Virus record (IMG/VR): IMGVR_UViG_3300036790_000196
Location: 975 to 64,974 of that record
Reading direction: 5' to 3' (one strand)
Source: a virus
Lineage: Duplodnaviria; Caudoviricetes
Length of the DNA stretch: 64,000 nt
A program made the position numbers and the translations under genes. The notes beneath the pieces are model-generated. The model ran no database searches, was not told where the DNA came from, and was given only the letters and a program-made list of their open reading frames with translations. Shown here one piece after another: positions 27,493-48,407 of this stretch; position 1 is the first letter of the stretch, and each line of letters opens with the position of its first letter.

Positions 27493-28530
27493 GTGCCAAA
27501 CTACAGCGCCGAGGACCTACGCAAGACCGGGGTTTACGCGATCACGAACAGCGTGAACGGGAAAAGGTATATCGGCAGCGCGGCCCTTAGTTTTTCAAGT
27601 CGATGGGCCAAACACAGGCACAGGCTCAGGAAGGGCACACACGAGAACAAATACCTTCAGGCGGCTTGGAATAAATACGGTGAGGATTCGTTTCTTTTCG
27701 AGGTGCTGGTGCGGTGTGATCCGGTCGAGTGTATATCGAAGGAGCAGGAACAAATCGAATCGTACGACACCTTAAACGAGGCGAGTGGATATAATTTGGC
27801 TCCCGCCGCTGGCAGCATGCTTGGGTACAAATTTGACCCCGCTGTGGTCGAAAGGATGGCTGCGAAAAAACGCGGCAGGCCATTAACCCCGGAAGCATTG
27901 GCCGCCGTCAGGGCGGCGGCAAAACTTCGGGTCGGGTACAAACATTCGGCAGAGTCTCGGGCCAAAATGAGTGCCTCCGCAAAGGCAGCTTACACCCCCG
28001 AAAGGGGCGCATTGCAATCCGCGATCAATAAGGCGCGTTCACCAGAACTGCTGGCCGAGATAAGGCGCCGGTCTAAGACCCCTGAAGCGCGTGCAAGGCA
28101 CGTCGCCGCGCTAAAGAAGGTTGTCCTATCCCCAGAAGTGCGGCAAAAGATCACCGAGGCCCGTTGGGCGGGCGATGCGAGAGAGAGGATGAGCGCGGCC
28201 CACAAAGGAAAAAAACTTTCGCCGGAGCACATAGCCAAGATGGTTGCGGCCAAGACTGGCCATAAGTTCACAGAGGAGCAAAGACGCAGGCTTAGTGAAG
28301 CGCACAAGGGGTATTTCCCTGATATGGTGCACCGCATGAATATGTCCCTTGCGATGCGCGGAAGGAAGCATAGTGAGGAGGCCAAGGCCAAAATGCGCCT
28401 CGCCGCTAGAACACCTGAAAAGCGCGAATACCAGAAGAATATTTCACGCCGACGCTGGGCCTTGGCTGGGTGGATAAAAAACCATTTGGGAATGAGCCCG
28501 AAAGACATTGATTGGGTCGTGGCCGCATAA
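27493..28530 (+). CDS. Free-standing GIY-YIG homing endonuclease with NUMOD3 repeats
   Basis: GVYAITN..NGKRYIGSA, HEN..LQ.AWNKYG, YN; repeated HSEE.KAKMS-type motifs. Confidence 0.95.
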   Translation: MPNYSAEDLRKTGVYAITNSVNGKRYIGSAALSFSSRWAKHRHRLRKGTHENKYLQAAWNKYGEDSFLFEVLVRCDPVECISKEQEQIESYDTLNEASGYNLAPAAGSMLGYKFDPAVVERMAAKKRGRPLTPEALAAVRAAAKLRVGYKHSAESRAKMSASAKAAYTPERGALQSAINKARSPELLAEIRRRSKTPEARARHVAALKKVVLSPEVRQKITEARWAGDARERMSAAHKGKKLSPEHIAKMVAAKTGHKFTEEQRRRLSEAHKGYFPDMVHRMNMSLAMRGRKHSEEAKAKMRLAARTPEKREYQKNISRRRWALAGWIKNHLGMSPKDIDWVVAA

Positions 28531-36133: not shown

Positions 36134-37279
36134 TCATTCCCTCGCCAGCTTCTTGACCTTGGCGATGACGGTCTCGGGCTTGATGCCCGCCAGAACCTCG
36201 CAGAGGCCCTGCTCCCTTGACGGGCAGTTCTTCGGGAACTTGGCGCGCACGGCGCTCCCGCCCTTCTCGTGGAAGAAGCATGGGCTGCACTTGCCGCGCC
36301 CCTGGATGCCGAAGACCGACGGCGAATAGACCGTCCGCAGCGACCACGGGAACGGGCCAAAGAGCCCCACGGAGGGCACGTCCAGCGCGCCTGCGATGTG
36401 GATGAAGGCCGAGTCGCTGCCAAGGAAGCAGCTTGCGCCTTGGATCACGGCGGCGGTCTTTCGGAAGGAGAGCCCATGGCTGGACAGGTTGCGCACGTTC
36501 GGGCCGTCGGGAACGCGCTCAAGGTTCTCCCTGCGTCCGATCAGATACACCTCCCACGCCGTCTCCTTCTGGAACGCCTCGACGATGGTCGCAAGCTGCT
36601 GCATGGGGTACACGCGGCAGAGGCCCGACATGGAGGCATCGACCTGGATGCAGAGGCGGCGCACGTTCGGGATGCGCGGGTACTGGACCTTGGCCCACGC
36701 GGCCTCGTCGTCGCTGACGCGGTACTCGGGCTTTCGGTCGCTGGTCTTCGGCGTCCACTCGCTCACGTCGTCCCTCGACCCCTTGAGCCACGCCTTCTTC
36801 GGGTGGGCGATGCCGATCATTTCCGCGAACACGTCGGCCATCGGGATGTCCTCGGCGCGGGGGTTGTTCTCAATCGCGTTCTCAAGGAACACCCAAGCGT
36901 CGTACTTCGCGTGCTCGGCCTTCGTGAGGGGGTAGCGCATGATCGTGTCGACGTAGGGAAGCCCTTTCATCACGTCGCCGTAGTCGCGCATGGTCGCCAC
37001 CGTGAGGACGATCCCCGGCCAGCGCCGCTTCATCTCGCGCAGGGCGGCGGTGAGGTTCGTCAGGTCACCAAAGCCCCCTACGCGCACGATGACGACCGAC
37101 TTCCCGTTCCAGTCGCTCTTTTCGTCGAAGGGGCGGCTCTCAACGAGCGGCGTCATTTTTCCCGCCCCGCATAGGTTGATGAGCTGCGCCCCCGTGATGT
37201 CCTCACAAAGGTATTCGCCGGGCTTGATCGTCTGCTCTGCGTCGATGACTATTTCTTCGGGGAGGGTGACAACGTGCAT
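36134..37279 (-). CDS. Glycosyltransferase family 9 (heptosyltransferase-like)
   Basis: R.GGFGDL, FLGSDSAFIHIAGALDVPSVGLFGP, CSPCF...C. Confidence 0.93.
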   Translation of the reverse strand: MHVVTLPEEIVIDAEQTIKPGEYLCEDITGAQLINLCGAGKMTPLVESRPFDEKSDWNGKSVVIVRVGGFGDLTNLTAALREMKRRWPGIVLTVATMRDYGDVMKGLPYVDTIMRYPLTKAEHAKYDAWVFLENAIENNPRAEDIPMADVFAEMIGIAHPKKAWLKGSRDDVSEWTPKTSDRKPEYRVSDDEAAWAKVQYPRIPNVRRLCIQVDASMSGLCRVYPMQQLATIVEAFQKETAWEVYLIGRRENLERVPDGPNVRNLSSHGLSFRKTAAVIQGASCFLGSDSAFIHIAGALDVPSVGLFGPFPWSLRTVYSPSVFGIQGRGKCSPCFFHEKGGSAVRAKFPKNCPSREQGLCEVLAGIKPETVIAKVKKLARE

Positions 37280-37287
37280 CGGGCGGC

Positions 37288-37359
37288 AGCGTGGTAGGGG
37301 CGGGAAGGCTGGTCAAGCCGGAAACTTTCGTTGACAGCGGCAGTCCGGCAGAGCACCTT
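37288..37359. promoter_or_regulatory. Back-to-back promoters: minus TTGACC-N17-CACGCT, plus TTGACA-N17-CACCTT
   Basis: -35 boxes at 37311-37316 (minus) and 37331-37336 (plus). Confidence 0.65.
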
Positions 37360-37370
37360 CCCGGCGTTCT

Positions 37371-37675
37371 TTGATCCCTGAATTGAACGTAGGTGGGTAA
37401 GCGATCCTTGCCAGACGACGCAGCGCCAGAGTGGGGCGCGGCCCTCCCATGGGCGCTCTGGTTGCTACCATGTCGCTTGGCAAGGAAGTACCCGCAGCGG
37501 AGGCCAGCCCTAGGACCGGGGCGCGGCGTCTGTACAAACGTGGTACCGGTCTCAAAACTGTCTGTACGGGTGTCCGCTACGGTGGCCCCTCCAACTAGAC
37601 GCAGCAGCACGCGCTGGAAATCAAGACGTGACAGCCCGCAGGTGTAGCGCCCTGCACGTTCAATTCAGGGATCAA
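37371..37675 (+). ncRNA. Putative ~305-nt structured non-coding RNA of unknown class
   Basis: Perfect 20-bp terminal inverted repeat, nested internal helices, upstream promoter, no credible ORF. Confidence 0.7.
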
Positions 37676-37718
37676 CCCCATCTTGACTCGCGCCACGCGC
37701 CTGTCGTAGAACCGTCCC

Positions 37719-37934
37719 ATGGCTGACAACTGGATTCAGGCCAGCGGGGTTTCAAAAAACAAGGGCGGCCTTCACCGCGCCCTCGGAGTGCCATCTGGCG
37801 AGAAAATCCCCTCCTCCAAGCTCTCCAGCGCCCTCAAGTCGGCCAATCCCCACCTGCGCCACATGGCCCGCTTCGCCGCGAACGTGAAGGGGCTTGGCGG
37901 CAGGAAAAAGACGAAGCGGCTGTTTGGAAGATAG
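37719..37934 (+). CDS. Small basic phage protein (WIQ...GLH..LGVP.GEKIP family)
   Basis: Recognisable motif; TTGACT box at 37683. Confidence 0.8.
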   Translation: MADNWIQASGVSKNKGGLHRALGVPSGEKIPSSKLSSALKSANPHLRHMARFAANVKGLGGRKKTKRLFGR

Positions 37935-38085
37935 CACCATGCCGGGGTCGGTACCCGGCCGCGAGGCCCGTGTGGCAGTCGGTCTGCCCTCCGATGAAAC
38001 AGCGCGGCAGTTGCCTTAGAATTTGGGTTTCCCCTTCAGCTTCCTGCTGTCACGCGCCGGCGCATCCGGCGAGATGGTGAGAGTG

Positions 38086-38571
38086 TCATGTTCCCGGCTC
38101 GATGTACCGGCCCTGCCCGTCACGCCACGGCGTCTCCTTCTCGACGACCCTCCATCCCGGCGACGGCTTTGCGGGTTCGCACGGCCCGCGATCGTCCCAT
38201 CGCGGCATCACCGAAAGGTCGAGGTAAGGTCCCTCGGCCCCTCGGTTCGTGAAGTGGAGCGAGTAGGCGTTACGTCCATGCGCCTTGCGCGTCGGATTCA
38301 TATCCTTCCAATAGTGGTCCAACTCGGCGTGATGGATGCAGGTCCCGGTCGCCTCGCGCATCGCGGCCACCAGTTCGGCCTCCGGCGCGGCCCCCTCGGT
38401 CCACGGAACGGCCACCATGTCGAGGTCTGTGCTCATGGAGCCGTGGACAGCCAAGCAGTAGCCCTTGGCGCGGGCAACCTTCGTGAGCAGCGGCACCAGC
38501 ATCGCGTAGGCCGCAGCGATACCGGAGAACGCCATGCGCGGAGGCTTCTCCAATGTGCGGTCGTCAACCAT
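38086..38571 (-). CDS. Nucleotidyltransferase-fold protein
   Basis: GY.LAVHGS...DLDMVAVPW (GS...DxD), third Asp in YLDLSVMP. Confidence 0.7.
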   Translation of the reverse strand: MVDDRTLEKPPRMAFSGIAAAYAMLVPLLTKVARAKGYCLAVHGSMSTDLDMVAVPWTEGAAPEAELVAAMREATGTCIHHAELDHYWKDMNPTRKAHGRNAYSLHFTNRGAEGPYLDLSVMPRWDDRGPCEPAKPSPGWRVVEKETPWRDGQGRYIEPGT

Positions 38572-40823: not shown

Positions 40824-43800
40824 TTAGTGTACGCCCGCCATGCGGCCTATCTGCTCCCTCACCTTTTTCCTCTCCGTCTCCTCGACCCGGCGAACCTCGT
40901 TCTGCACGGCGGCGTCCGTCTTTCCGTAGAAGCCGGGACGCAGGGCGTCAAGCCGCGCCTTTATGAGGCGACCGCTCACGGTCTTGTAGAAGTTGAACTC
41001 CTTGTCGGTCATCGTCCGGTTGCCGAGCTTCGTCTGGCGCTCCGGCTCGGAGGGCGCGATGTTGCGGTCACTGAGGGCTTTTCGCAGCGGGTCGGCCTTC
41101 TGGGCAGAGGCGATGCGCTGCTCCGGGGAGTAGGTCACGGCGTCGCCGAGGGCGTCGGTTCGGACGGGGAGAGTCCTGCGAAGGAACGGCACCTGCGCCT
41201 TGGCGATGTCCTTCATGGACGACGCCTCGCGCTCGCGGGGGTCGAGCGCCTGATCTATCTGCCGGACCGCCGAAGGGACGACCGTAGAGGAGCCGGTTGC
41301 GGCGAGGAAGCGCCCCATCTTGGCAGCCCCGGTCTTGCCGCTCGCTATCTCGGCCAGGTTGGAAAGCCCCTCCAGCATGGGGGTGTCGACGAAGGATTTG
41401 CCAATGCCCGCAACGGCGTCCGCGACTTTATTTCCCAGCAGCAGCTGGTCGGGGGTTTTCTCGTAGCGCAGCGCATCTGCCACATTGCCGACGATAGCCA
41501 TCGGGACGGCGAGCGGAGTGTACATGCTGTTGAACCATCTCCCGTCCACGCGGAATGAGTGCGGCCTTTTACCCTGTTGCTGCAGCTCGACCCTGTGCGC
41601 CATGTCCACCGGCCCGTTTCCTGTTATGTCAAAGCCCGTGTCGTCGCCCTTTTTCTTTGAGAGAGCTGCGTGGAGGGTCACACCCATCAGGAGGCTTCCT
41701 GCCGCCGCCTTCACCAGCAACCGATTCCTCTCGTCGGCGTCGGGCATGGAATGAACCCCCTCGGCATCCCGAGTGCCAGCCAAGGCCCGCTTTGCCCCGT
41801 ATCCAGCCCAATTAACCGACTCGTTGAGCAGGTTCGTAGGGACCTTCATGAAAGGCAGGAAAGGCTTCAGGATGGGGACGCCTGCGACCTTAACCCTGTT
41901 ATCCACCCCGTCCTTGATCCAGCGGTACATGACACCCATGAGGCCAGTCGGCTCATTGGCATAGACGCTTTCCCTCGAGAACCTGTCGGCAGACGCTGCT
42001 GCAGCAGCGCCCTCCGGCGAGGACAAACGGTGCTCCTGCATGAGTTGGGCCACGCGGAGCCCCGCGTCGGCACCCTTGAAGCCCTCGCCTTCAGCCTGCT
42101 CCTTGAAGCCGTCAAATTGCTCCCGGGTGATCCCAAGCGTCTCCTTTACCTTGCTGTCAAGGTCCTTGCCCGAGTAGTCGCCCTCCAGAAGCTTCGTCGC
42201 CGCGAGGCGGGCATAGGCTTCGCGGGCCGGGACGGCGAACATCGCCTCCAGCGCCCGGAAGGTGCGCGGCACGTACTTCATGACGCCGGGGTACACCGCG
42301 GCCTTTCCCGTGAGATCCTCCAGGTCGGACATGCGGCGCGGGTCCGGGCTCTTTGCCGTCACGTCGCCCCCCTTGGCCGCGTCGAAGTCGATTGACCCAC
42401 GCCCGGACTTCATGACGGACGCGGCCCGCTCCAGCCCCTCTGGCACGCCCGAGAGCCAGCCCTTCAGGAGTTCCGGGGCCTTCGCCGGGTTGGCCGTGAT
42501 CGCAGCCCCCATCTGCCCGATGCCGTTCGTGATGTCGCCAAGCGCCTTCACCGGCACCGTTAGCCCGGACAGCATGTTGGCGTACCAGAGGCTTGTGCCG
42601 GTGCGAATCGCCTTCGACAGGGTTCCGGGGTCGCGGGCCTTGTGGAGTTCCGTGGCGAGGTCCAATGTCGCCCTTGCGCGCGAGGCCACATCCGGCGCAC
42701 GTTCCACGGAGTCGGCGAGGTCGCCTATCTTTTGAACCTGCTCCGGCGTGGCCTGCGGCAAATGGAGTTCCTGCACCACGGCGTCGTGGACGTCGGCGCG
42801 GGTCATGGCACCAAGATTGGAGAGCGTCTTGGCCTTCTGGACGGCGGAGAACACCTGCTTCGCCCGCGTGCTGTTGGTGAACTTCTCCTTCAGCCTTTCC
42901 AGCGCCTTCTCGCGTTCCTGTGCGTAGATTTCCTTCGCGCGGTCGGTCAGGTCGCTGGCAAGCCGCGTCGCATCGGCCCCGCTTATCCCTGCGTCCTTCA
43001 CGAGGGCGTCCGCGATGTCGCCCGCCTTGATGTCGGTCTTCGTGATGTGCTGGCGGGCAATGTCCGCCGCCTTGTCGCCCATCGCGTCATGCGCGGTCTT
43101 GATCGCCTTCGTCAGCAGGCGGTCGCTCCACGGGCGCAGTTCCAGGTTGGAAAGCTGGGTGTCAACGAGGTCAACCGGAGGTGAGCCTTCCCCGTACTTC
43201 TTCGCCATTTCGTCGCGGACGGTCGTCAGCACTTGACCGTAACGCTCACGGTTGTCCATCGCCTCCTTCATGACCTCCATCGCGGTCGGGGGCGGCTTGC
43301 CTTCGGGCCTCTCGGGGAGCAGCCCCTTGAAGCGACCCTTCATTTCCGCGATGATCCGGTCGGCGAACTCCTTCAGCGGAGCCTGCTCCTTCGGGGGCTC
43401 GGCGCTGGAATCGACCAGCTTTATCATCTGCGCCGCTGCGTCCTCGCGGTACTTCTGCCAAGCGGACTTGCCGACCTTGAGTTTCCGCAGGCTCTTTCGC
43501 ATCTCGTCCGATGCCTTGTCGATCGCGTCCTCCTTGGCCTTCTCAACGGCGTCGCTCGCCTCGTCCAGCGCCTTCTTGCCGTCGTTGCCGAGCTTCCTCT
43601 CCTGAGCCTCGGAAACGTCTGACAAGTGCTGGTCAACGGCGTGGCCGCGCTCCGACTTGCCGATTTGCTGGAACATGGAGATTCCCTGACCGACCTCCGT
43701 CGCCTGCGGGGCCTTGACGGTCGAGAGCGCCTGACGTGCTCGAAGGGCCGCAGCCTTTTCAGCCGGCGTCTTGGCATCGAAGAACTTCTGGTCCGCCGCC

Positions 43801-46800
43801 TGCGCGAGCTTCACGTAGATGGCGGTCTTGACCGGCTCCGGCACGCCGTTGTCGGCCTTGGAGGTGGAGAGACGCAGGGCCTCGTCCGGTCCCTTGGCGT
43901 CGATGATGGCCTGCGCGCTGTCGAGGTCCGGCTGCTGCCCGCGCCTCTGGTAAACCTGCCGCACGATGTCCTCGTTCGCCGTCCGCTCCGTGTCCGGCAG
44001 GCTGCGGTAGTAGTTGCCCTTGCCGGGGGCCTTCTCCGGCTTCTGCGCCTGCGCCGCCTCCTCCGGCGCGTGCTTCATGATCGCGTCGTGCAGGTCTTGC
44101 AGGTGCGGGCGAATCTTATCGCCAAACTCCTTCACCATCTCGGCGCTCCACTTGGCGAAGTCGCGGACGCCGCGCTCGGCTATTGCGACGCCCTTGACGG
44201 CGATGGCTGCGTACTCTTGGGGCGTGCCGAGGCCGAGATTGCGCGCCTTCTTGCCGATGTCCTTGATTACGCTATCCGCCCACGCCTCGGCCTTGGAGCC
44301 TGAGACTACGCCCTTCTCCGGAGTGGTGACTCCAGCGGCCGGCAATCCGGGTCCTGGCAGCTCGCCTCGATCCCGAACTCCACCAGATCCCCCGGACCCG
44401 ATTTCCTTTGGGGACAGGGTGATTGGGGATTCGCCATCCTTTTTCCGCTTGGCGTTGATAATGGACTCAGCCTCGCTGATCCGATCAAGCGCCCCCTGAT
44501 GGTACTCACCTTCCTTGACATCACGGAAAGGTAGCACGGCAGGCGAAGAAACGTCAATACCCTTCGGGAGTCCCCAACTGGAGCCCTCGGCCTTCGCTGC
44601 CACATTAGCAGTCTTGGACGGGGTTGTGACTTCCGGCTCGACCTTGTGCTCCGCCAGTTCCTCTGGCGTCAGTTTCGGGATTGCCTTGGTCGGGATTGTC
44701 GGGGGCCGCAGTTCCGCGCCGCCAAACTTCCGGTCGATCTTCTTCTGAAACGCCTCCAGCGCCTCCTTGACTTTCGGTACACGGAAAGTCCCGTCGCCCG
44801 GAACGTCGATTGTTACGGTGGCGGGGTATTTGTCGTAGAAAGCCTTCTGCGCCGCGTCCTTGTCGGCCAGCGTCTTTGCGCGTTCACCCGCCTTGCCTGC
44901 CTCGGCCAAGTCCTTCTCGAAATCGGGCGCGCTTGGTGCGTCCTTCAACGCCTCCGTGATTGCGTCCCCGATGAACGCCTTCTGCGCCTTGATCTGCTTC
45001 GGGGTGGCCAGTTTCGAGACGGCGGCCTCCGCGTGGGGCGTCGGCGTGATCTTCGTATCCTTGCCGTCCTTCTCCACGACCGCGTGCGGCTGCTCCTCCG
45101 CAGGGCGCGTCTCCTTCGGACCCTCGCCGGTCTTGGCCTTCTCGAAGGCACTGACTTCGGGGAGCAGTTTGCGGACGGGCGCGTCCAGTTGCGTGACGGG
45201 AATGTTATCCACGCCGTCCGTCTTGTCGGCCATCCACTGATGGTGCCCGTCCACGATGTAGCCGTCCTTGGAGACGAGGATCTTCCGGTCGCTCCCCTTG
45301 TGCTCACGGGCCGCCTGCACCTTCTCGGGCGAGAACTCGGCCTGCGTGGGCTTCAGGTCGGCGACCTTCATCATGCGGTTCTTGGAAGCGATGCCCTTCT
45401 CCTTGAGGGATTCGACCAGCGCGGGGCGGTCCTCGCTCTTTACCTGCGGCATCTCGCCCCTCGGCACGTCCAAGGACTTCTCGCTTGCGGGGAACTTCTG
45501 CCAGGTGGGCTCGCCTTTCGCAGGCGTCAGCCCTTCGCCGACGGCTCCGCTGTCACCCCCGGCGGGTGCGCCGGCCCCGGCGGGTTCTGCGGGACGCTCT
45601 GCACCTCGTGCATCTGCCGGTGCATTTGGAACATCCTCTCGTGGTGCGCCGCCTCGTTCCGGTGATACGCCGCCCTCTCGTGGTGCTCCTTCATCCGGCT
45701 GTGGTGCGACATTTCCGCGAGGTGGTTCGGCCTCGACGGCGGCTGCTCCTCCACTGTCCGCTTGTCGAACAGCTTGCGGGTTTTTCGGCTCACCTTGGGG
45801 GGCGGCGCCTCGGGCGTTGTCCCCGCTTTCGCTAGGGCGCTGAACAGTTTCTTGGGCATTGGTTGGTTCTCCTTGTTTGGCCGCCTCGTCGGTCGGCAGT
45901 TTGCTGACGTCGATTCCCTGCTTCTCTAATTCGCTGCGGGTCACGGTGACGCCGCGGGGCTCGCCGGGGAGCGTGACCTGCCAGTGGTCCTCCGGCTGGC
46001 CCACGCCCTTCAGCACAGGCTCCTTCTTGCCGAGGTACGTCACCTTGGCGTCTGGGGGAAGGGAGCCTTTGGCGGCTGCGGCAGGTTTCGCGGCCTCTGC
46101 CGGTTTCGTGGCCTCCGCAGGCTTCATGCCCTCCTTGAGGATTTCGGCACGAAGGTCGTCCTCCATCTGCGGGGCGTGGGCTTCGGGCTCCGCCGTCCCC
46201 GGAGGCGCTTCCTTTGGCGGCGGACCCTTCGGCGGGGGCGCGGCAGGCTGCGGGGCGGGCTCGGTCGCGGGAGGGGCCTCGGCGGGGGCTTCCGGTGCCT
46301 CAACCGGCCCCGCGTGCGGTTCGCCCTTTGCGAGTCCCTTCGTTCCGTGCGCCGCTGCCGCCGTCATGGCTGCGGAGAGGATGGCCCCGGCGATGGCCTT
46401 CGCCTTGTCGGCGCGGGTCGCCTTGGGGTCATGAAGGGCAGCGTAGGCCGCCTGCGTCTGCTTGAGCGTGTCATGCGCCCCCTCTGCCGTGAAGCCTGCC
46501 AGAGCGCCCACCTGCGCGCCCTTTGCGACCATGGCTAGGCGTGTTCCCGCCGCAAGGTCGCCGACTATGCCAGCACCCCCCGTTGCCGCCATGAGGGCGA
46601 CGTTGGCGGGCGATGTGAGCCCTGCCGCGAACTCGCTGGCTGCGTTTGCGATGCCGGGGACGGCCCCCGTGCCATGGGCTTTCGGGATCGTGTAAAGCGC
46701 GCCAGTCGTCCCTGCGGACTCGCTGCCGATGAGAGGCTTAGGTGATGGGGTCTTTGCATTCGCCTGCATCAAAGCCTCCAGTAATGTCCCGGGCCTCCGG

Positions 46801-48407
46801 CCCTGCTGCGTCTGCGCCCAGCGGTCCACGAGGGGCCCGGGGGCCGGCGGAGGGCTGGGCGTTCCTGTCTGCGTTGGAGGCGGGGCGGCAGGAGTGCCCG
46901 GCGCGGGAGCAGGGCTGGAACCGGGGGCGGGCGGCGCTCCACCTGCTGCGGGACCGGCCGGCGGAGGCTCTCCGGGCGGGGGCGTTCCGGGAAGTGCGGG
47001 GGCAACCGGCGGGTTCGCCTGCCGCTGCTGCGCACGCTGCGCGGACATGGCGACACCGGAGGCGGCGCCGCTTGCGTGGTTCGCCTGCGCTATCTGAAGT
47101 TGCTGGAGAATCGGGTCCTTCGCGGGGTCGCCGCCTGCGTTCGTGATCGCCGCCGCTCGCTGGTCGATCGCGTGCTGATAGGCCCCGTGCCTGAAAAGGT
47201 CCTGATAGATGGCGTACTGGAGCTTGGCCTCGGCGTTCGTCTCATAGAGATGGCCGCCCTTCTTCAGCGACGCCGTGAGCGCCTGCCTCTCATTCTCGAT
47301 GGCTGCCTGCTGCCTTTGCAGCATGGTAAGCTGCGCCTGCGCTTTATCGGCCTTGGCTGACGGGATCGCGCCGATGCTGGTTCCGAGGATGCCGTTGTCC
47401 GTCTCGTTGAGATTCGGGTCGGCCTCGGCTGCCATCTTCGCCGTCGAAAGCTGGTCGCTCTGGCTTTGCAGGTCGGTGAGGCGTTGGTTCGCCTGCTCCT
47501 TGGCGTCCTCCGTCTTGCCCACGACCACGGCCATGCCGGAAAGCGCCTCGTTCCACTGGTTCTTGTGGACGTTCTTAAGCGTCTCCCTGGCGGCCTTCGC
47601 CGTCTGGTAGTCGGGGCTCTTGGCCAAATCCGCCGCGTCGCCCGCGGTATGCGTGGTTCCGTCCGATGTGGTGTAATAGAGATTCGTGTCGTTGGCATCA
47701 CCCGAGGAAAACAGCTTATATCCCCTGAACTGGCGCTGGCCGTACTGATCCCTTGACTCTTGCGCAGGCTTTCCGGTCTTGGGGTCCACGCTATCAGACC
47801 ACGGCGTCTTGTCGTAGAGGGGCCGTCCCGTTCCGGGCTCGAGCACCGGCTGGATGTTGCCCTCGGGGTCGCGGAAGAACTTCTGTCCGTTCGCCCGCAT
47901 GTCGTTTTCCCTCTGCGTCGCCGTCGCCACGCGCTGCTGCCTCTGCTGGAGGGCCTGCTGCCTCTCGGCTATCTGCGCCTGCCTCTGGGCAAGCGCGTCC
48001 TTCTGGTCCTGCGCCCGCTCCGCTGCGGCGTACCAGCTCTGCGGCGTGTCGGGCAGGTCGAAGCTGGTCTTGAACGGGTTGGCCTTGAAGAAGGCGTCGC
48101 TAAACTGCTTGTCCGCCGCGCCGTAGGCTTCCTTGTAGTGGTCCTCCGGCGATTGGACCTGCGGCGTGTCCGGTGTTCCGGGAGGGGGGAGTGGGCCGCC
48201 TGTGTAGTCTTTGGAGGGCTTCCCGTAGCCCGCTGCGGCGAAGCTCGCGTCGATGTCGGCCTGCGAACTGCCGGGGGCCTGCTGCGGACCTACCGGGACG
48301 CCGCCGCGAGGGGCCTGCGGCGCCTGCTGTGCGTCCTGCTCCTCGGGCTCCGCGACCGCTGCGGAAGCGCGCGCGTCGTTGTCGGGGTCGTCAGCCGGAT
48401 CAGCCAT
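40824..48407 (-). CDS. Giant internal virion / DNA-ejection protein with ParB-like domain
   Basis: 2527 aa, Ala-rich helical; LKPTQ...ILVSKDGYIVDGHHQW; C-terminal PF.KVP.N...Q..DP..RE...PF....LP...D..G. Confidence 0.8.
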   Translation of the reverse strand: MADPADDPDNDARASAAVAEPEEQDAQQAPQAPRGGVPVGPQQAPGSSQADIDASFAAAGYGKPSKDYTGGPLPPPGTPDTPQVQSPEDHYKEAYGAADKQFSDAFFKANPFKTSFDLPDTPQSWYAAAERAQDQKDALAQRQAQIAERQQALQQRQQRVATATQRENDMRANGQKFFRDPEGNIQPVLEPGTGRPLYDKTPWSDSVDPKTGKPAQESRDQYGQRQFRGYKLFSSGDANDTNLYYTTSDGTTHTAGDAADLAKSPDYQTAKAARETLKNVHKNQWNEALSGMAVVVGKTEDAKEQANQRLTDLQSQSDQLSTAKMAAEADPNLNETDNGILGTSIGAIPSAKADKAQAQLTMLQRQQAAIENERQALTASLKKGGHLYETNAEAKLQYAIYQDLFRHGAYQHAIDQRAAAITNAGGDPAKDPILQQLQIAQANHASGAASGVAMSAQRAQQRQANPPVAPALPGTPPPGEPPPAGPAAGGAPPAPGSSPAPAPGTPAAPPPTQTGTPSPPPAPGPLVDRWAQTQQGRRPGTLLEALMQANAKTPSPKPLIGSESAGTTGALYTIPKAHGTGAVPGIANAASEFAAGLTSPANVALMAATGGAGIVGDLAAGTRLAMVAKGAQVGALAGFTAEGAHDTLKQTQAAYAALHDPKATRADKAKAIAGAILSAAMTAAAAHGTKGLAKGEPHAGPVEAPEAPAEAPPATEPAPQPAAPPPKGPPPKEAPPGTAEPEAHAPQMEDDLRAEILKEGMKPAEATKPAEAAKPAAAAKGSLPPDAKVTYLGKKEPVLKGVGQPEDHWQVTLPGEPRGVTVTRSELEKQGIDVSKLPTDEAAKQGEPTNAQETVQRPSESGDNARGAAPQGEPKNPQAVRQADSGGAAAVEAEPPRGNVAPQPDEGAPREGGVSPERGGAPREDVPNAPADARGAERPAEPAGAGAPAGGDSGAVGEGLTPAKGEPTWQKFPASEKSLDVPRGEMPQVKSEDRPALVESLKEKGIASKNRMMKVADLKPTQAEFSPEKVQAAREHKGSDRKILVSKDGYIVDGHHQWMADKTDGVDNIPVTQLDAPVRKLLPEVSAFEKAKTGEGPKETRPAEEQPHAVVEKDGKDTKITPTPHAEAAVSKLATPKQIKAQKAFIGDAITEALKDAPSAPDFEKDLAEAGKAGERAKTLADKDAAQKAFYDKYPATVTIDVPGDGTFRVPKVKEALEAFQKKIDRKFGGAELRPPTIPTKAIPKLTPEELAEHKVEPEVTTPSKTANVAAKAEGSSWGLPKGIDVSSPAVLPFRDVKEGEYHQGALDRISEAESIINAKRKKDGESPITLSPKEIGSGGSGGVRDRGELPGPGLPAAGVTTPEKGVVSGSKAEAWADSVIKDIGKKARNLGLGTPQEYAAIAVKGVAIAERGVRDFAKWSAEMVKEFGDKIRPHLQDLHDAIMKHAPEEAAQAQKPEKAPGKGNYYRSLPDTERTANEDIVRQVYQRRGQQPDLDSAQAIIDAKGPDEALRLSTSKADNGVPEPVKTAIYVKLAQAADQKFFDAKTPAEKAAALRARQALSTVKAPQATEVGQGISMFQQIGKSERGHAVDQHLSDVSEAQERKLGNDGKKALDEASDAVEKAKEDAIDKASDEMRKSLRKLKVGKSAWQKYREDAAAQMIKLVDSSAEPPKEQAPLKEFADRIIAEMKGRFKGLLPERPEGKPPPTAMEVMKEAMDNRERYGQVLTTVRDEMAKKYGEGSPPVDLVDTQLSNLELRPWSDRLLTKAIKTAHDAMGDKAADIARQHITKTDIKAGDIADALVKDAGISGADATRLASDLTDRAKEIYAQEREKALERLKEKFTNSTRAKQVFSAVQKAKTLSNLGAMTRADVHDAVVQELHLPQATPEQVQKIGDLADSVERAPDVASRARATLDLATELHKARDPGTLSKAIRTGTSLWYANMLSGLTVPVKALGDITNGIGQMGAAITANPAKAPELLKGWLSGVPEGLERAASVMKSGRGSIDFDAAKGGDVTAKSPDPRRMSDLEDLTGKAAVYPGVMKYVPRTFRALEAMFAVPAREAYARLAATKLLEGDYSGKDLDSKVKETLGITREQFDGFKEQAEGEGFKGADAGLRVAQLMQEHRLSSPEGAAAAASADRFSRESVYANEPTGLMGVMYRWIKDGVDNRVKVAGVPILKPFLPFMKVPTNLLNESVNWAGYGAKRALAGTRDAEGVHSMPDADERNRLLVKAAAGSLLMGVTLHAALSKKKGDDTGFDITGNGPVDMAHRVELQQQGKRPHSFRVDGRWFNSMYTPLAVPMAIVGNVADALRYEKTPDQLLLGNKVADAVAGIGKSFVDTPMLEGLSNLAEIASGKTGAAKMGRFLAATGSSTVVPSAVRQIDQALDPREREASSMKDIAKAQVPFLRRTLPVRTDALGDAVTYSPEQRIASAQKADPLRKALSDRNIAPSEPERQTKLGNRTMTDKEFNFYKTVSGRLIKARLDALRPGFYGKTDAAVQNEVRRVEETERKKVREQIGRMAGVH

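Follow-up and report, generated by a model that had tools for sequence, protein, structure and literature searches.

A single-copy accessory cassette of a novel uncultured phage, closed by a perfect 20-bp inverted repeat, non-coding and represented in RNA libraries

Introduction

What is the stretch of about 300 bp, bounded by a perfect inverted repeat, that lies between two divergent genes in the genome of an uncultured tailed phage? It could be the gene of a structured RNA, a remnant of mobile DNA, the leader of a neighbouring gene or a device that acts at the level of DNA. The original prediction, made from the letters alone, took it for a promoter-driven, multi-domain non-coding RNA of about 305 nt closed by a perfect 20-bp stem. 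In what follows the window is the whole stretch of DNA that was analysed (64,000 nt), which takes up almost the entire virus record (64,974 bp, rated complete and bearing direct terminal repeats), and all positions are positions of the window.

The Phage and the Locus

The source of the window is a novel, uncultured phage of ~65 kb found in soil and freshwater. A tblastn search with its portal protein against 50,697 phage records gave no cultured relative, and DNA similar to the element was absent from cultured phages and plasmids. The portal protein nevertheless has 205 relatives at E <= 1e-10, many of them on contigs of 61-69 kb and the best non-self matches being 67-68% identical, and the phage is a member of a large uncultured group. 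The features to which the text refers are the following.

36134-37279, minus strand: GT9-like glycosyltransferase gene, the left neighbour (PF01075, E 4.1e-12)
37311-37316, minus strand: -35 box TTGACC of the glycosyltransferase promoter, the start codon being at 37279
37331-37359, plus strand: candidate promoter P1 (TTGACA, 17-nt spacer, CACCTT), pointing into the element
37371-37390, strand-neutral: left arm of the perfect 20-bp inverted repeat, exact reverse complement of the right arm
37393-37495, either strand: long irregular hairpin of 35-37 pairs, the sole interior structure that beats shuffled sequence
37395-37607, strand not given by the contigs: stretch of the stand-alone RNA-library contigs (X19, X21), a candidate mature RNA of ~210 nt
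37656-37675, strand-neutral: right arm of the perfect 20-bp inverted repeat, exact reverse complement of the left arm
37683-37712, plus strand: promoter of the 71-aa gene (TTGACT, 18-nt spacer, TAGAAC), leaving 6 nt to the ATG at 37719 as in a leaderless layout
37719-37934, plus strand: 71-aa gene, the right neighbour, function unassigned (third-position GC 0.76; protein cluster n=8)
Right of the 71-aa gene, minus strand: 161-aa gene, SU10-type portal gene and gene of a 2527-aa virion protein

In 19 of the 39 related IMG/VR loci that were compared, the glycosyltransferase and portal genes are neighbours on one strand, often 50-230 nt apart, and the junction of the two is therefore a spot where extra DNA accumulates. 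Homologues of the 71-aa gene were found in four of the 39 (the near-identical phage, L017, L018 and the fragment L045).

Some features of the wider surroundings are recorded here in their own right. The 2527-aa gene beside the portal gene (40824-48407) is matched, weakly, by internal virion proteins in PHROG and lacks a Pfam domain, and a free-standing GIY-YIG/NUMOD3 homing-endonuclease gene (27493-28530) lies between the minus-strand and plus-strand gene blocks. The 5' third of the glycosyltransferase gene (36900-37200) is a hot patch of divergence, with 6-13 differences per 100 nt from the sister phages and 0-4 elsewhere in the gene. The sister genomes are mosaic rightward of 37713 (G001) and of 38000 (G002), and in the fragmentary sister phage G001 (L065:1-1690) 1.7 kb past the 71-aa gene holds neither a convincing ORF nor an Rfam match.

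The Inverted Repeat and Its Borders

The element measures 305 bases from arm to arm and leaves 265 nt between the arms, which are, exactly as predicted, 100% complementary (37371-37390 and 37656-37675). In the window the arm 20-mer has exactly two occurrences, one per strand; two matches were reached in 0 of 100 dinucleotide shuffles. Perfect inverted repeats of at least 15 bp, with 30-1200 nt between their arms, are limited in the 64 kb to the arm pair and one 15-bp pair. The inverted repeat thus far exceeds chance.

No direct repeat was found at the borders of the element: the left flank ends GGCGTTCT and the right flank begins CCCCATCT, which bears out the earlier observation that a target-site duplication is missing. 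Between the end of the right arm and the -35 box of the 71-aa gene promoter lie 7 nt. One change in an arm was seen, in L004, where the right arm has C at 37659 instead of the T of the window; this gives A.C in an RNA of the plus strand and G.U in one of the minus strand.

Coding Capacity and Known RNA Families

Open frames do run across the element, of 84 and 55 aa on the plus strand and of 135 and 80 aa on the minus strand. Codon-position GC is, however, flat in all six frames of the element (third position 0.58-0.65); in the 71-aa, glycosyltransferase, 161-aa and portal genes third-position GC is 0.76-0.92. The 84-aa and 135-aa frames had no relative at E <= 0.001 among 5.8 billion protein clusters and no match in a Pfam search. 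With flat GC and no protein relatives the frames look non-coding, in agreement with the earlier judgement that none of them is credible, and the element is non-coding.

Known RNA families gave no better fit. Rfam matched nothing around the element at E <= 1 and nothing across the whole window at gathering score, and the best match of a permissive scan was to an unrelated archaeal snoRNA model (E 1.3). ARAGORN found neither a tRNA nor a tmRNA. The predicted RNA had been described as unassignable to tRNA, tmRNA, RNase P or 6S, and these searches agree with that description. No published description of the element was found in the literature available to us, the accessible part of a catalogue of candidate viral structured RNAs included (PMC10690425), and two contig numbers were absent from six supplementary files of that catalogue (PMC10690425), as far as these were accessible.

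Occurrence Among Relatives and in Metagenomes

Some relatives do without the element. In L017, L018 and the fragment L045, the portal of which is 66% identical, only 88 nt separate the starts of the 71-aa and glycosyltransferase genes. About 360 nt between the two promoter boxes, the element included, are present only in the window and not in the aligned relatives. Since both neighbour genes and their promoter boxes are kept in relatives without the element, the latter is an accessory insert, and from this comparison the cassette is probably dispensable and lineage-specific. In a blastn search of the intergenic region against the 39 related loci only the near-identical phage L014 matched, and a covariance model of the long hairpin found only the window itself among 46 sources (418,632 bases). 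A scan of the related loci for inverted-repeat pairs turned up one in L039, which lies within a long ORF and so is not comparable; it gave no other comparable pair.

The exact arm is present in two other IMG/VR contigs, from phages ~98-99% identical to that of the window, as one copy each in the same place and orientation. These two sister copies differ from the window by C for T at 37552 and G for T at 37559, and one of them, L004, also by the change at 37659 in the right arm. The window, G001 and G002 have one copy each, and the multiple copies with target-site duplications that had been named as the mark of a MITE were not found. In run X5 the element has 3 differences in 439 nt, compared with 7 in ~400 nt for 36500-36900 in the neighbouring gene. 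This might suggest extra conservation of the element; that idea was rejected, as divergence around the element is patchy and the element sits at the baseline of the neighbouring gene.

Further afield, the arm 20-mer has one solo occurrence among 185,579 species genomes, the sole exact match in bacteria, in a Caulobacterales MAG (L013:684-705), where the identity to the right arm and two flanking bases is exact over 22 nt and lies 45 nt upstream of a MoxR-like ATPase gene. As about one exact arm match is expected by chance in 596 billion bases, and the MAG has no relative of the phage portal, a host link to Caulobacterales was discarded. Among 301 Caulobacterales genomes three further arm matches with at most two mismatches were found, all in unrelated contexts. 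An arm match in JGI metagenomes (L064) was likewise set aside as a solo 20-mer at chance level on an unrelated AT-rich contig. A search for the two-arm pattern gave six loci, two of them already known and four unrelated and without extended arms.

A lake-water DNA run appears to contain both states of the site. One contig (depth 18.7) joins 37327 to 37716 via 31 other letters, which, being a single contig with 30 letters on its shorter side and 85% likeness, is a hint only; a separate contig of the same run carries the element at a depth of 5.86. Loose ends were seen in this run at 37408, 37623 and 37657, and diverged variants of the element seem, from these contigs, to exist in it. A 24-letter piece of the loose end of a variant contig was absent from IMG/VR and from the window. 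Given how common the phage family is in metagenomes of lakes and peat, there should be diverged copies of use for covariation.

Promoters Around the Cassette

The two neighbour genes are read away from the element, and their promoters flank it back to back. L017 and L045, both without the element, retain the TTGACC box of the glycosyltransferase promoter at an unchanged distance from the start codon and the CATCTTGACT box of the 71-aa gene at an unchanged spacing from the ATG; the glycosyltransferase arrangement is also seen in L015 and L016. Both genes have a TTGAC-type -35 box and a start codon just 6-8 nt past the -10, a layout retained in relatives. Going by this layout, both are probably expressed as leaderless mRNAs.

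The promoter predicted for the element itself, TTGACA-N17-CACCTT, is in place, with TTGACA at 37331-37336 and CACCTT at 37354-37359, 11 nt ahead of the stem. Its -35 box is perfect, but its -10 hexamer is poor (2 of 6 positions match TATAAT), and a consensus promoter scan of 37100-38200 did not report it, the sole match lying at 37994-38022. P1 is treated here as a candidate promoter, from which transcripts would run into the element. One element-free lake-water contig has TTGACA at the place of P1, 18 nt before a TAG-type -10 box and the ATG of the 71-aa gene, so P1 may be the old promoter of that gene, which now feeds the insert. A second promoter beside the 71-aa gene may then keep this gene expressed while P1 feeds the insert. 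Between the element and the 71-aa gene no terminator-like site was found on the plus strand. The minus strand has a terminator-like hairpin with a T-run within the 71-aa gene (37778-37765), in a position to halt transcripts that come leftward from the structural operon.

The Element in RNA Libraries

In six metatranscriptome runs about one in ten words of a 1.4-kb stretch surrounding the element recurs, and two of these, peat runs from different studies (X19 and X21), were compared with 36500-38500. Each contributed one contig. That of X19 is 196 nt long (37412-37607), has a depth of 95.4 and shows no differences from the window, and that of X21 is 211 nt long (37395-37605), has a depth of 12.5 and shows one difference. 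Both lie wholly within the element, are free of loose ends, include neither arm and share the window alleles at 37552 and 37559. A 10.5-kb peat DNA contig (run X5) continues past both ends of the RNA contigs. One RNA-contig end coincides with the base of the long hairpin. The lack of RNA contigs over the flanking genes was not counted as evidence.

Taken together these contigs are a weak hint of a discrete RNA of ~210 nt from the element. As regards the predicted ncRNA gene, the element is non-coding, belongs to no known family and has its interior represented in RNA libraries as a short stand-alone contig, but the contigs give neither the strand nor the true ends of the RNA. They end ~50 nt before the right arm. 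It follows that the abundant species is without the closing stem, and the stem may be relevant only at the DNA level.

Folding of the Element

A stretch of 317 nt that includes the arms folds better than all of 100 shuffles on either strand (z -3.96 on the plus and -4.87 on the minus strand). The 265-nt interior without the arms does not stand out: z is +0.12 on the plus strand (equalled or bettered by 117 of 200 shuffles) and -0.70 on the minus strand (by 48 of 200). Within it only the hairpin at 37393-37495 is exceptional (z -3.67 on the plus strand, 2 of 200 shuffles; z -4.06 on the minus strand, 0 of 200), with G-U pairs making up 5 of 37 pairs on the plus strand and 2 of 35 on the minus strand. 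The remaining parts, 37496-37607 and 37608-37655, are unremarkable against shuffles (z between -0.51 and +1.39), and the RNA-library stretch folded alone has z -0.69 on the plus and -1.38 on the minus strand. The closing stem and one long hairpin are thus the two real structural features. All five nested helices listed in the original prediction are in the sequence and in minimum-energy folds, and three of them fall within the above-chance hairpin, but the other two are at chance level. The multi-domain architecture ascribed to the RNA was not recovered, as the fold beyond the closing stem and the hairpin is indistinguishable from that of shuffled sequence.

Among 104 predicted pairs no compensatory change was seen, and two pairs are broken, each in a single copy; the available copies, the only ones compared, are ~99% identical, and none of the pairs is informative about covariation. 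The allelic sites at 37552 and 37559 fall on one predicted pair and were considered as a possible case, but the change is from C-G to U.U and hence not compensatory.

A Proposed Scheme for the Cassette

As best explanation we favour an accessory non-coding cassette that is set between back-to-back promoters, is transcribed and gives a stable RNA of ~210 nt, a reading that we take to be evenly poised between right and wrong. In this scheme transcription from P1 would start a few bases before the left arm and run rightward, and in transcripts that span both arms these would pair into a 20-bp duplex. Such a duplex would insulate the folding of the insert from the mRNA of the 71-aa gene and would offer a substrate for a double-strand-specific RNase; we infer that RNase III would release the insert at this closing stem. 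The RNA-contig ends lie inward of the stem, so extra trimming would be required after cleavage of the duplex, and it would leave a hairpin-protected core of ~37395-37607 that is dominated by the hairpin at 37393-37495. Leftward read-through of the structural operon would be kept out of the element by the minus-strand terminator-like hairpin in the 71-aa gene. As for the role of the RNA, a dispensable and lineage-specific cassette makes a moron-like contribution to fitness or to counter-defence the best guess, by analogy with phage morons.

Clues to the strand conflict. The direction of P1 and the G-U count of the long hairpin (5 vs 2) speak for the plus strand. The arm change of L004, which pairs only on the minus strand (G.U), the lower z of that strand (-4.87 vs -3.96) and an order of parts that resembles a retron speak for the minus strand. 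There are also findings that go against the favoured explanation altogether: shuffled sequence gives folds as good as that of the whole interior, the element shows no extra constraint relative to the neighbouring gene, and a stable decay fragment of a longer mRNA leader would give the same contigs.

The last of these leads to a reading, in our view distinctly improbable, in which the element is a cis-acting structured 5' leader formed by read-through from P1 to the 71-aa gene and the RNA in the libraries is its decay product. P1 is directed through the element toward this gene, no terminator-like site intervenes on the plus strand, and the base of the hairpin matches one contig end, as a leader would have it. 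The 71-aa gene, however, has a conserved leaderless promoter of its own directly ahead of it, relatives express the gene without such a leader, and the gene begins more than 110 nt beyond the point, about 37606, at which both RNA contigs break off. A MITE or other foldback-type remnant of mobile DNA, with the arms as terminal inverted repeats, a transposase or recombinase acting in trans and transcription being incidental, is rather unlikely, although it would account for several findings at once: perfect terminal inverted repeats around 305 bp without coding capacity that come and go among related phages, perfect arms with a thermodynamically ordinary interior, arms that stay outside the RNA contigs, and inverted repeats that also bound accessory inserts in L015 (18-nt arms, 16 matching) and L072 (heptamer runs). 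Against this, no target-site duplication was found at the flanks, there is one copy per genome in the window, G001 and G002, the exact arm in IMG/VR is confined to two contigs of the same phage species, the other two solo 20-mers being at chance level, and none of the six two-arm loci was a new element. No transposase, resolvase or integrase was found in the phage, nor was a parent transposon with the same ends present in the phage genome. Inverted repeats around ~265 bp between divergent genes, one of them for a glycosyltransferase, also call to mind a device that works as DNA, either an inverton or two identical 20-bp protein sites that loop the DNA between the divergent promoters; the left arm follows closely on P1, and 7 nt separate the right arm from the -35 box of the 71-aa promoter. 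Such a device is most unlikely, as all five spanning assemblies (window, L004, L005, X5 contig, X2 contig) have the same orientation, no joint with a change of strand was seen (contigs drop rare forms), Resolvase and Phage_integrase were unmatched in six frames of the phage genome, and the whole unit, arms included, is missing from relatives, the promoters of which function all the same.

An orphan retron-like msr-msd RNA of the minus strand, the arms forming the a1/a2 stem and the long hairpin the template of a host reverse transcriptase, is a highly improbable reading on present evidence. In retron ncRNAs generally, a1/a2 repeats close the ncRNA and a G follows the 5' arm. Such an a1/a2-type feature is present here, as the 20-nt arm on the minus strand is directly followed by a G (37655), and the order on this strand is arm, G, small hairpins, 100-nt hairpin and arm. 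The stretch 37395-37607 starts beside the 3' arm and ends ~48 nt from the G, the expected place of a reverse-transcribed template, and the arm change of L004 keeps pairing on the minus strand only. What is missing is the enzyme: a six-frame search of the complete phage genome for RVT_1 (PF00078) gave nothing at E <= 1, although control genomes responded, no reverse transcriptase was among 70 open frames scanned with Pfam, and the arm search of species genomes found no bacterial genome with the arms beside a reverse transcriptase. The gene downstream on the minus strand is a glycosyltransferase kept by relatives without the element, and Rfam, its retron msr family included, was unmatched. The msr-msd mimic that had been proposed thus lacks a defining feature, a reverse transcriptase in the phage. 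Its remaining form, in which the cassette is a retron-type minus-strand template without its own reverse transcriptase that a host retron enzyme copies from the 3' arm to ~37607, just the part that appears in the RNA libraries, the product being a decoy or surrogate msDNA that keeps the retron toxin silent, strikes us as very doubtful indeed. Since a defining feature was looked for in each case and not found, the element is not a member of the MITE, retron or inverton classes.

Relation to Known Systems

Of known systems, it is the phage moron that the favoured non-coding cassette would resemble most in the way it works, with the difference that it would encode RNA. To our knowledge, morons in phage genomes are almost always treated as protein genes. 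Accessory small RNAs of phages include the pseudo-ToxI RNA acquired by phage PhiTE and prophage sRNAs such as DicF. Like morons and these sRNAs, the element is a dispensable, lineage-specific and non-coding insert between conserved genes that has its own candidate promoter and is found in RNA libraries; unlike them it is closed by a perfect 20-bp inverted repeat, and there is no relation to them in sequence or in Rfam. Like MITEs and MPMEs, the ultra-small mobile elements of mycobacteriophages, it is ~300 bp long, ends in perfect inverted repeats and is carried by some related phages and not by others, but it is single-copy, without target-site duplication, transposase or further copies in the collections searched. 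MPMEs carry a small ORF, which the element does not.

The resemblance to retron msr-msd consists of a terminal a1/a2-like stem, the G after the 5' arm on the minus strand and a long hairpin by the 3' arm, in contrast to a genome without a reverse transcriptase match, an unmatched Rfam msr family and a conserved glycosyltransferase as downstream gene. Stems processed by RNase III are known from the R sites of T7 and from the flanks of rRNA. A perfect duplex of ~20 bp formed by sequences that flank a structured core is common to these and to the element, the RNA contigs of which, on the other hand, end ~50 nt inside the right arm and so outside the stem, cleavage being the inferred step. Invertons of the fimS type likewise have inverted repeats around a few hundred bp, divergent genes and, as here, a surface-sugar gene adjacent, but in the present case a single orientation was observed and an invertase was not found.

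Several points give the locus an interest beyond this phage. The element appears to be an RNA-only accessory cassette with library evidence of expression in nature, and perfect 20-bp closure around a hairpin-dominated core is an unusual architecture. What is new here is the RNA-library evidence, the two above-chance structures, the anatomy of the promoters with and without the insert, and the negative outcome of the searches for a reverse transcriptase or recombinases. If the RNA acts in trans, be it in counter-defence, in host takeover or as a retron decoy, it would be a new class of phage RNA tools, and if the arms are recombination ends they would represent a new way to move small cassettes between phages. 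The site is a hot spot at the portal-glycosyltransferase junction, with other small inserts there in related phages, and hairpin-closed cassettes may be a general route of accessory gene exchange among such phages, for which the ORF-bearing inserts of L015 and L072 can be compared.

The first of these was seen in two otherwise identical relatives (L015:4191-4519 against L016:4940-5010), which differ by an insert of ~325 nt from the portal stop to the glycosyltransferase promoter. Read by eye, a small ORF of ~86 aa runs through it on the opposite strand. The insert lies between the arms of an 18-nt inverted repeat that matches at 16 of 18 positions; the left arm, formed by the end of the portal gene, occurs at the empty site as well. 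In L072 (585-930), a GC-rich phage contig, an 85-aa ORF is enclosed by inverted runs of heptamers (GATCCCT/GACCCCT units).
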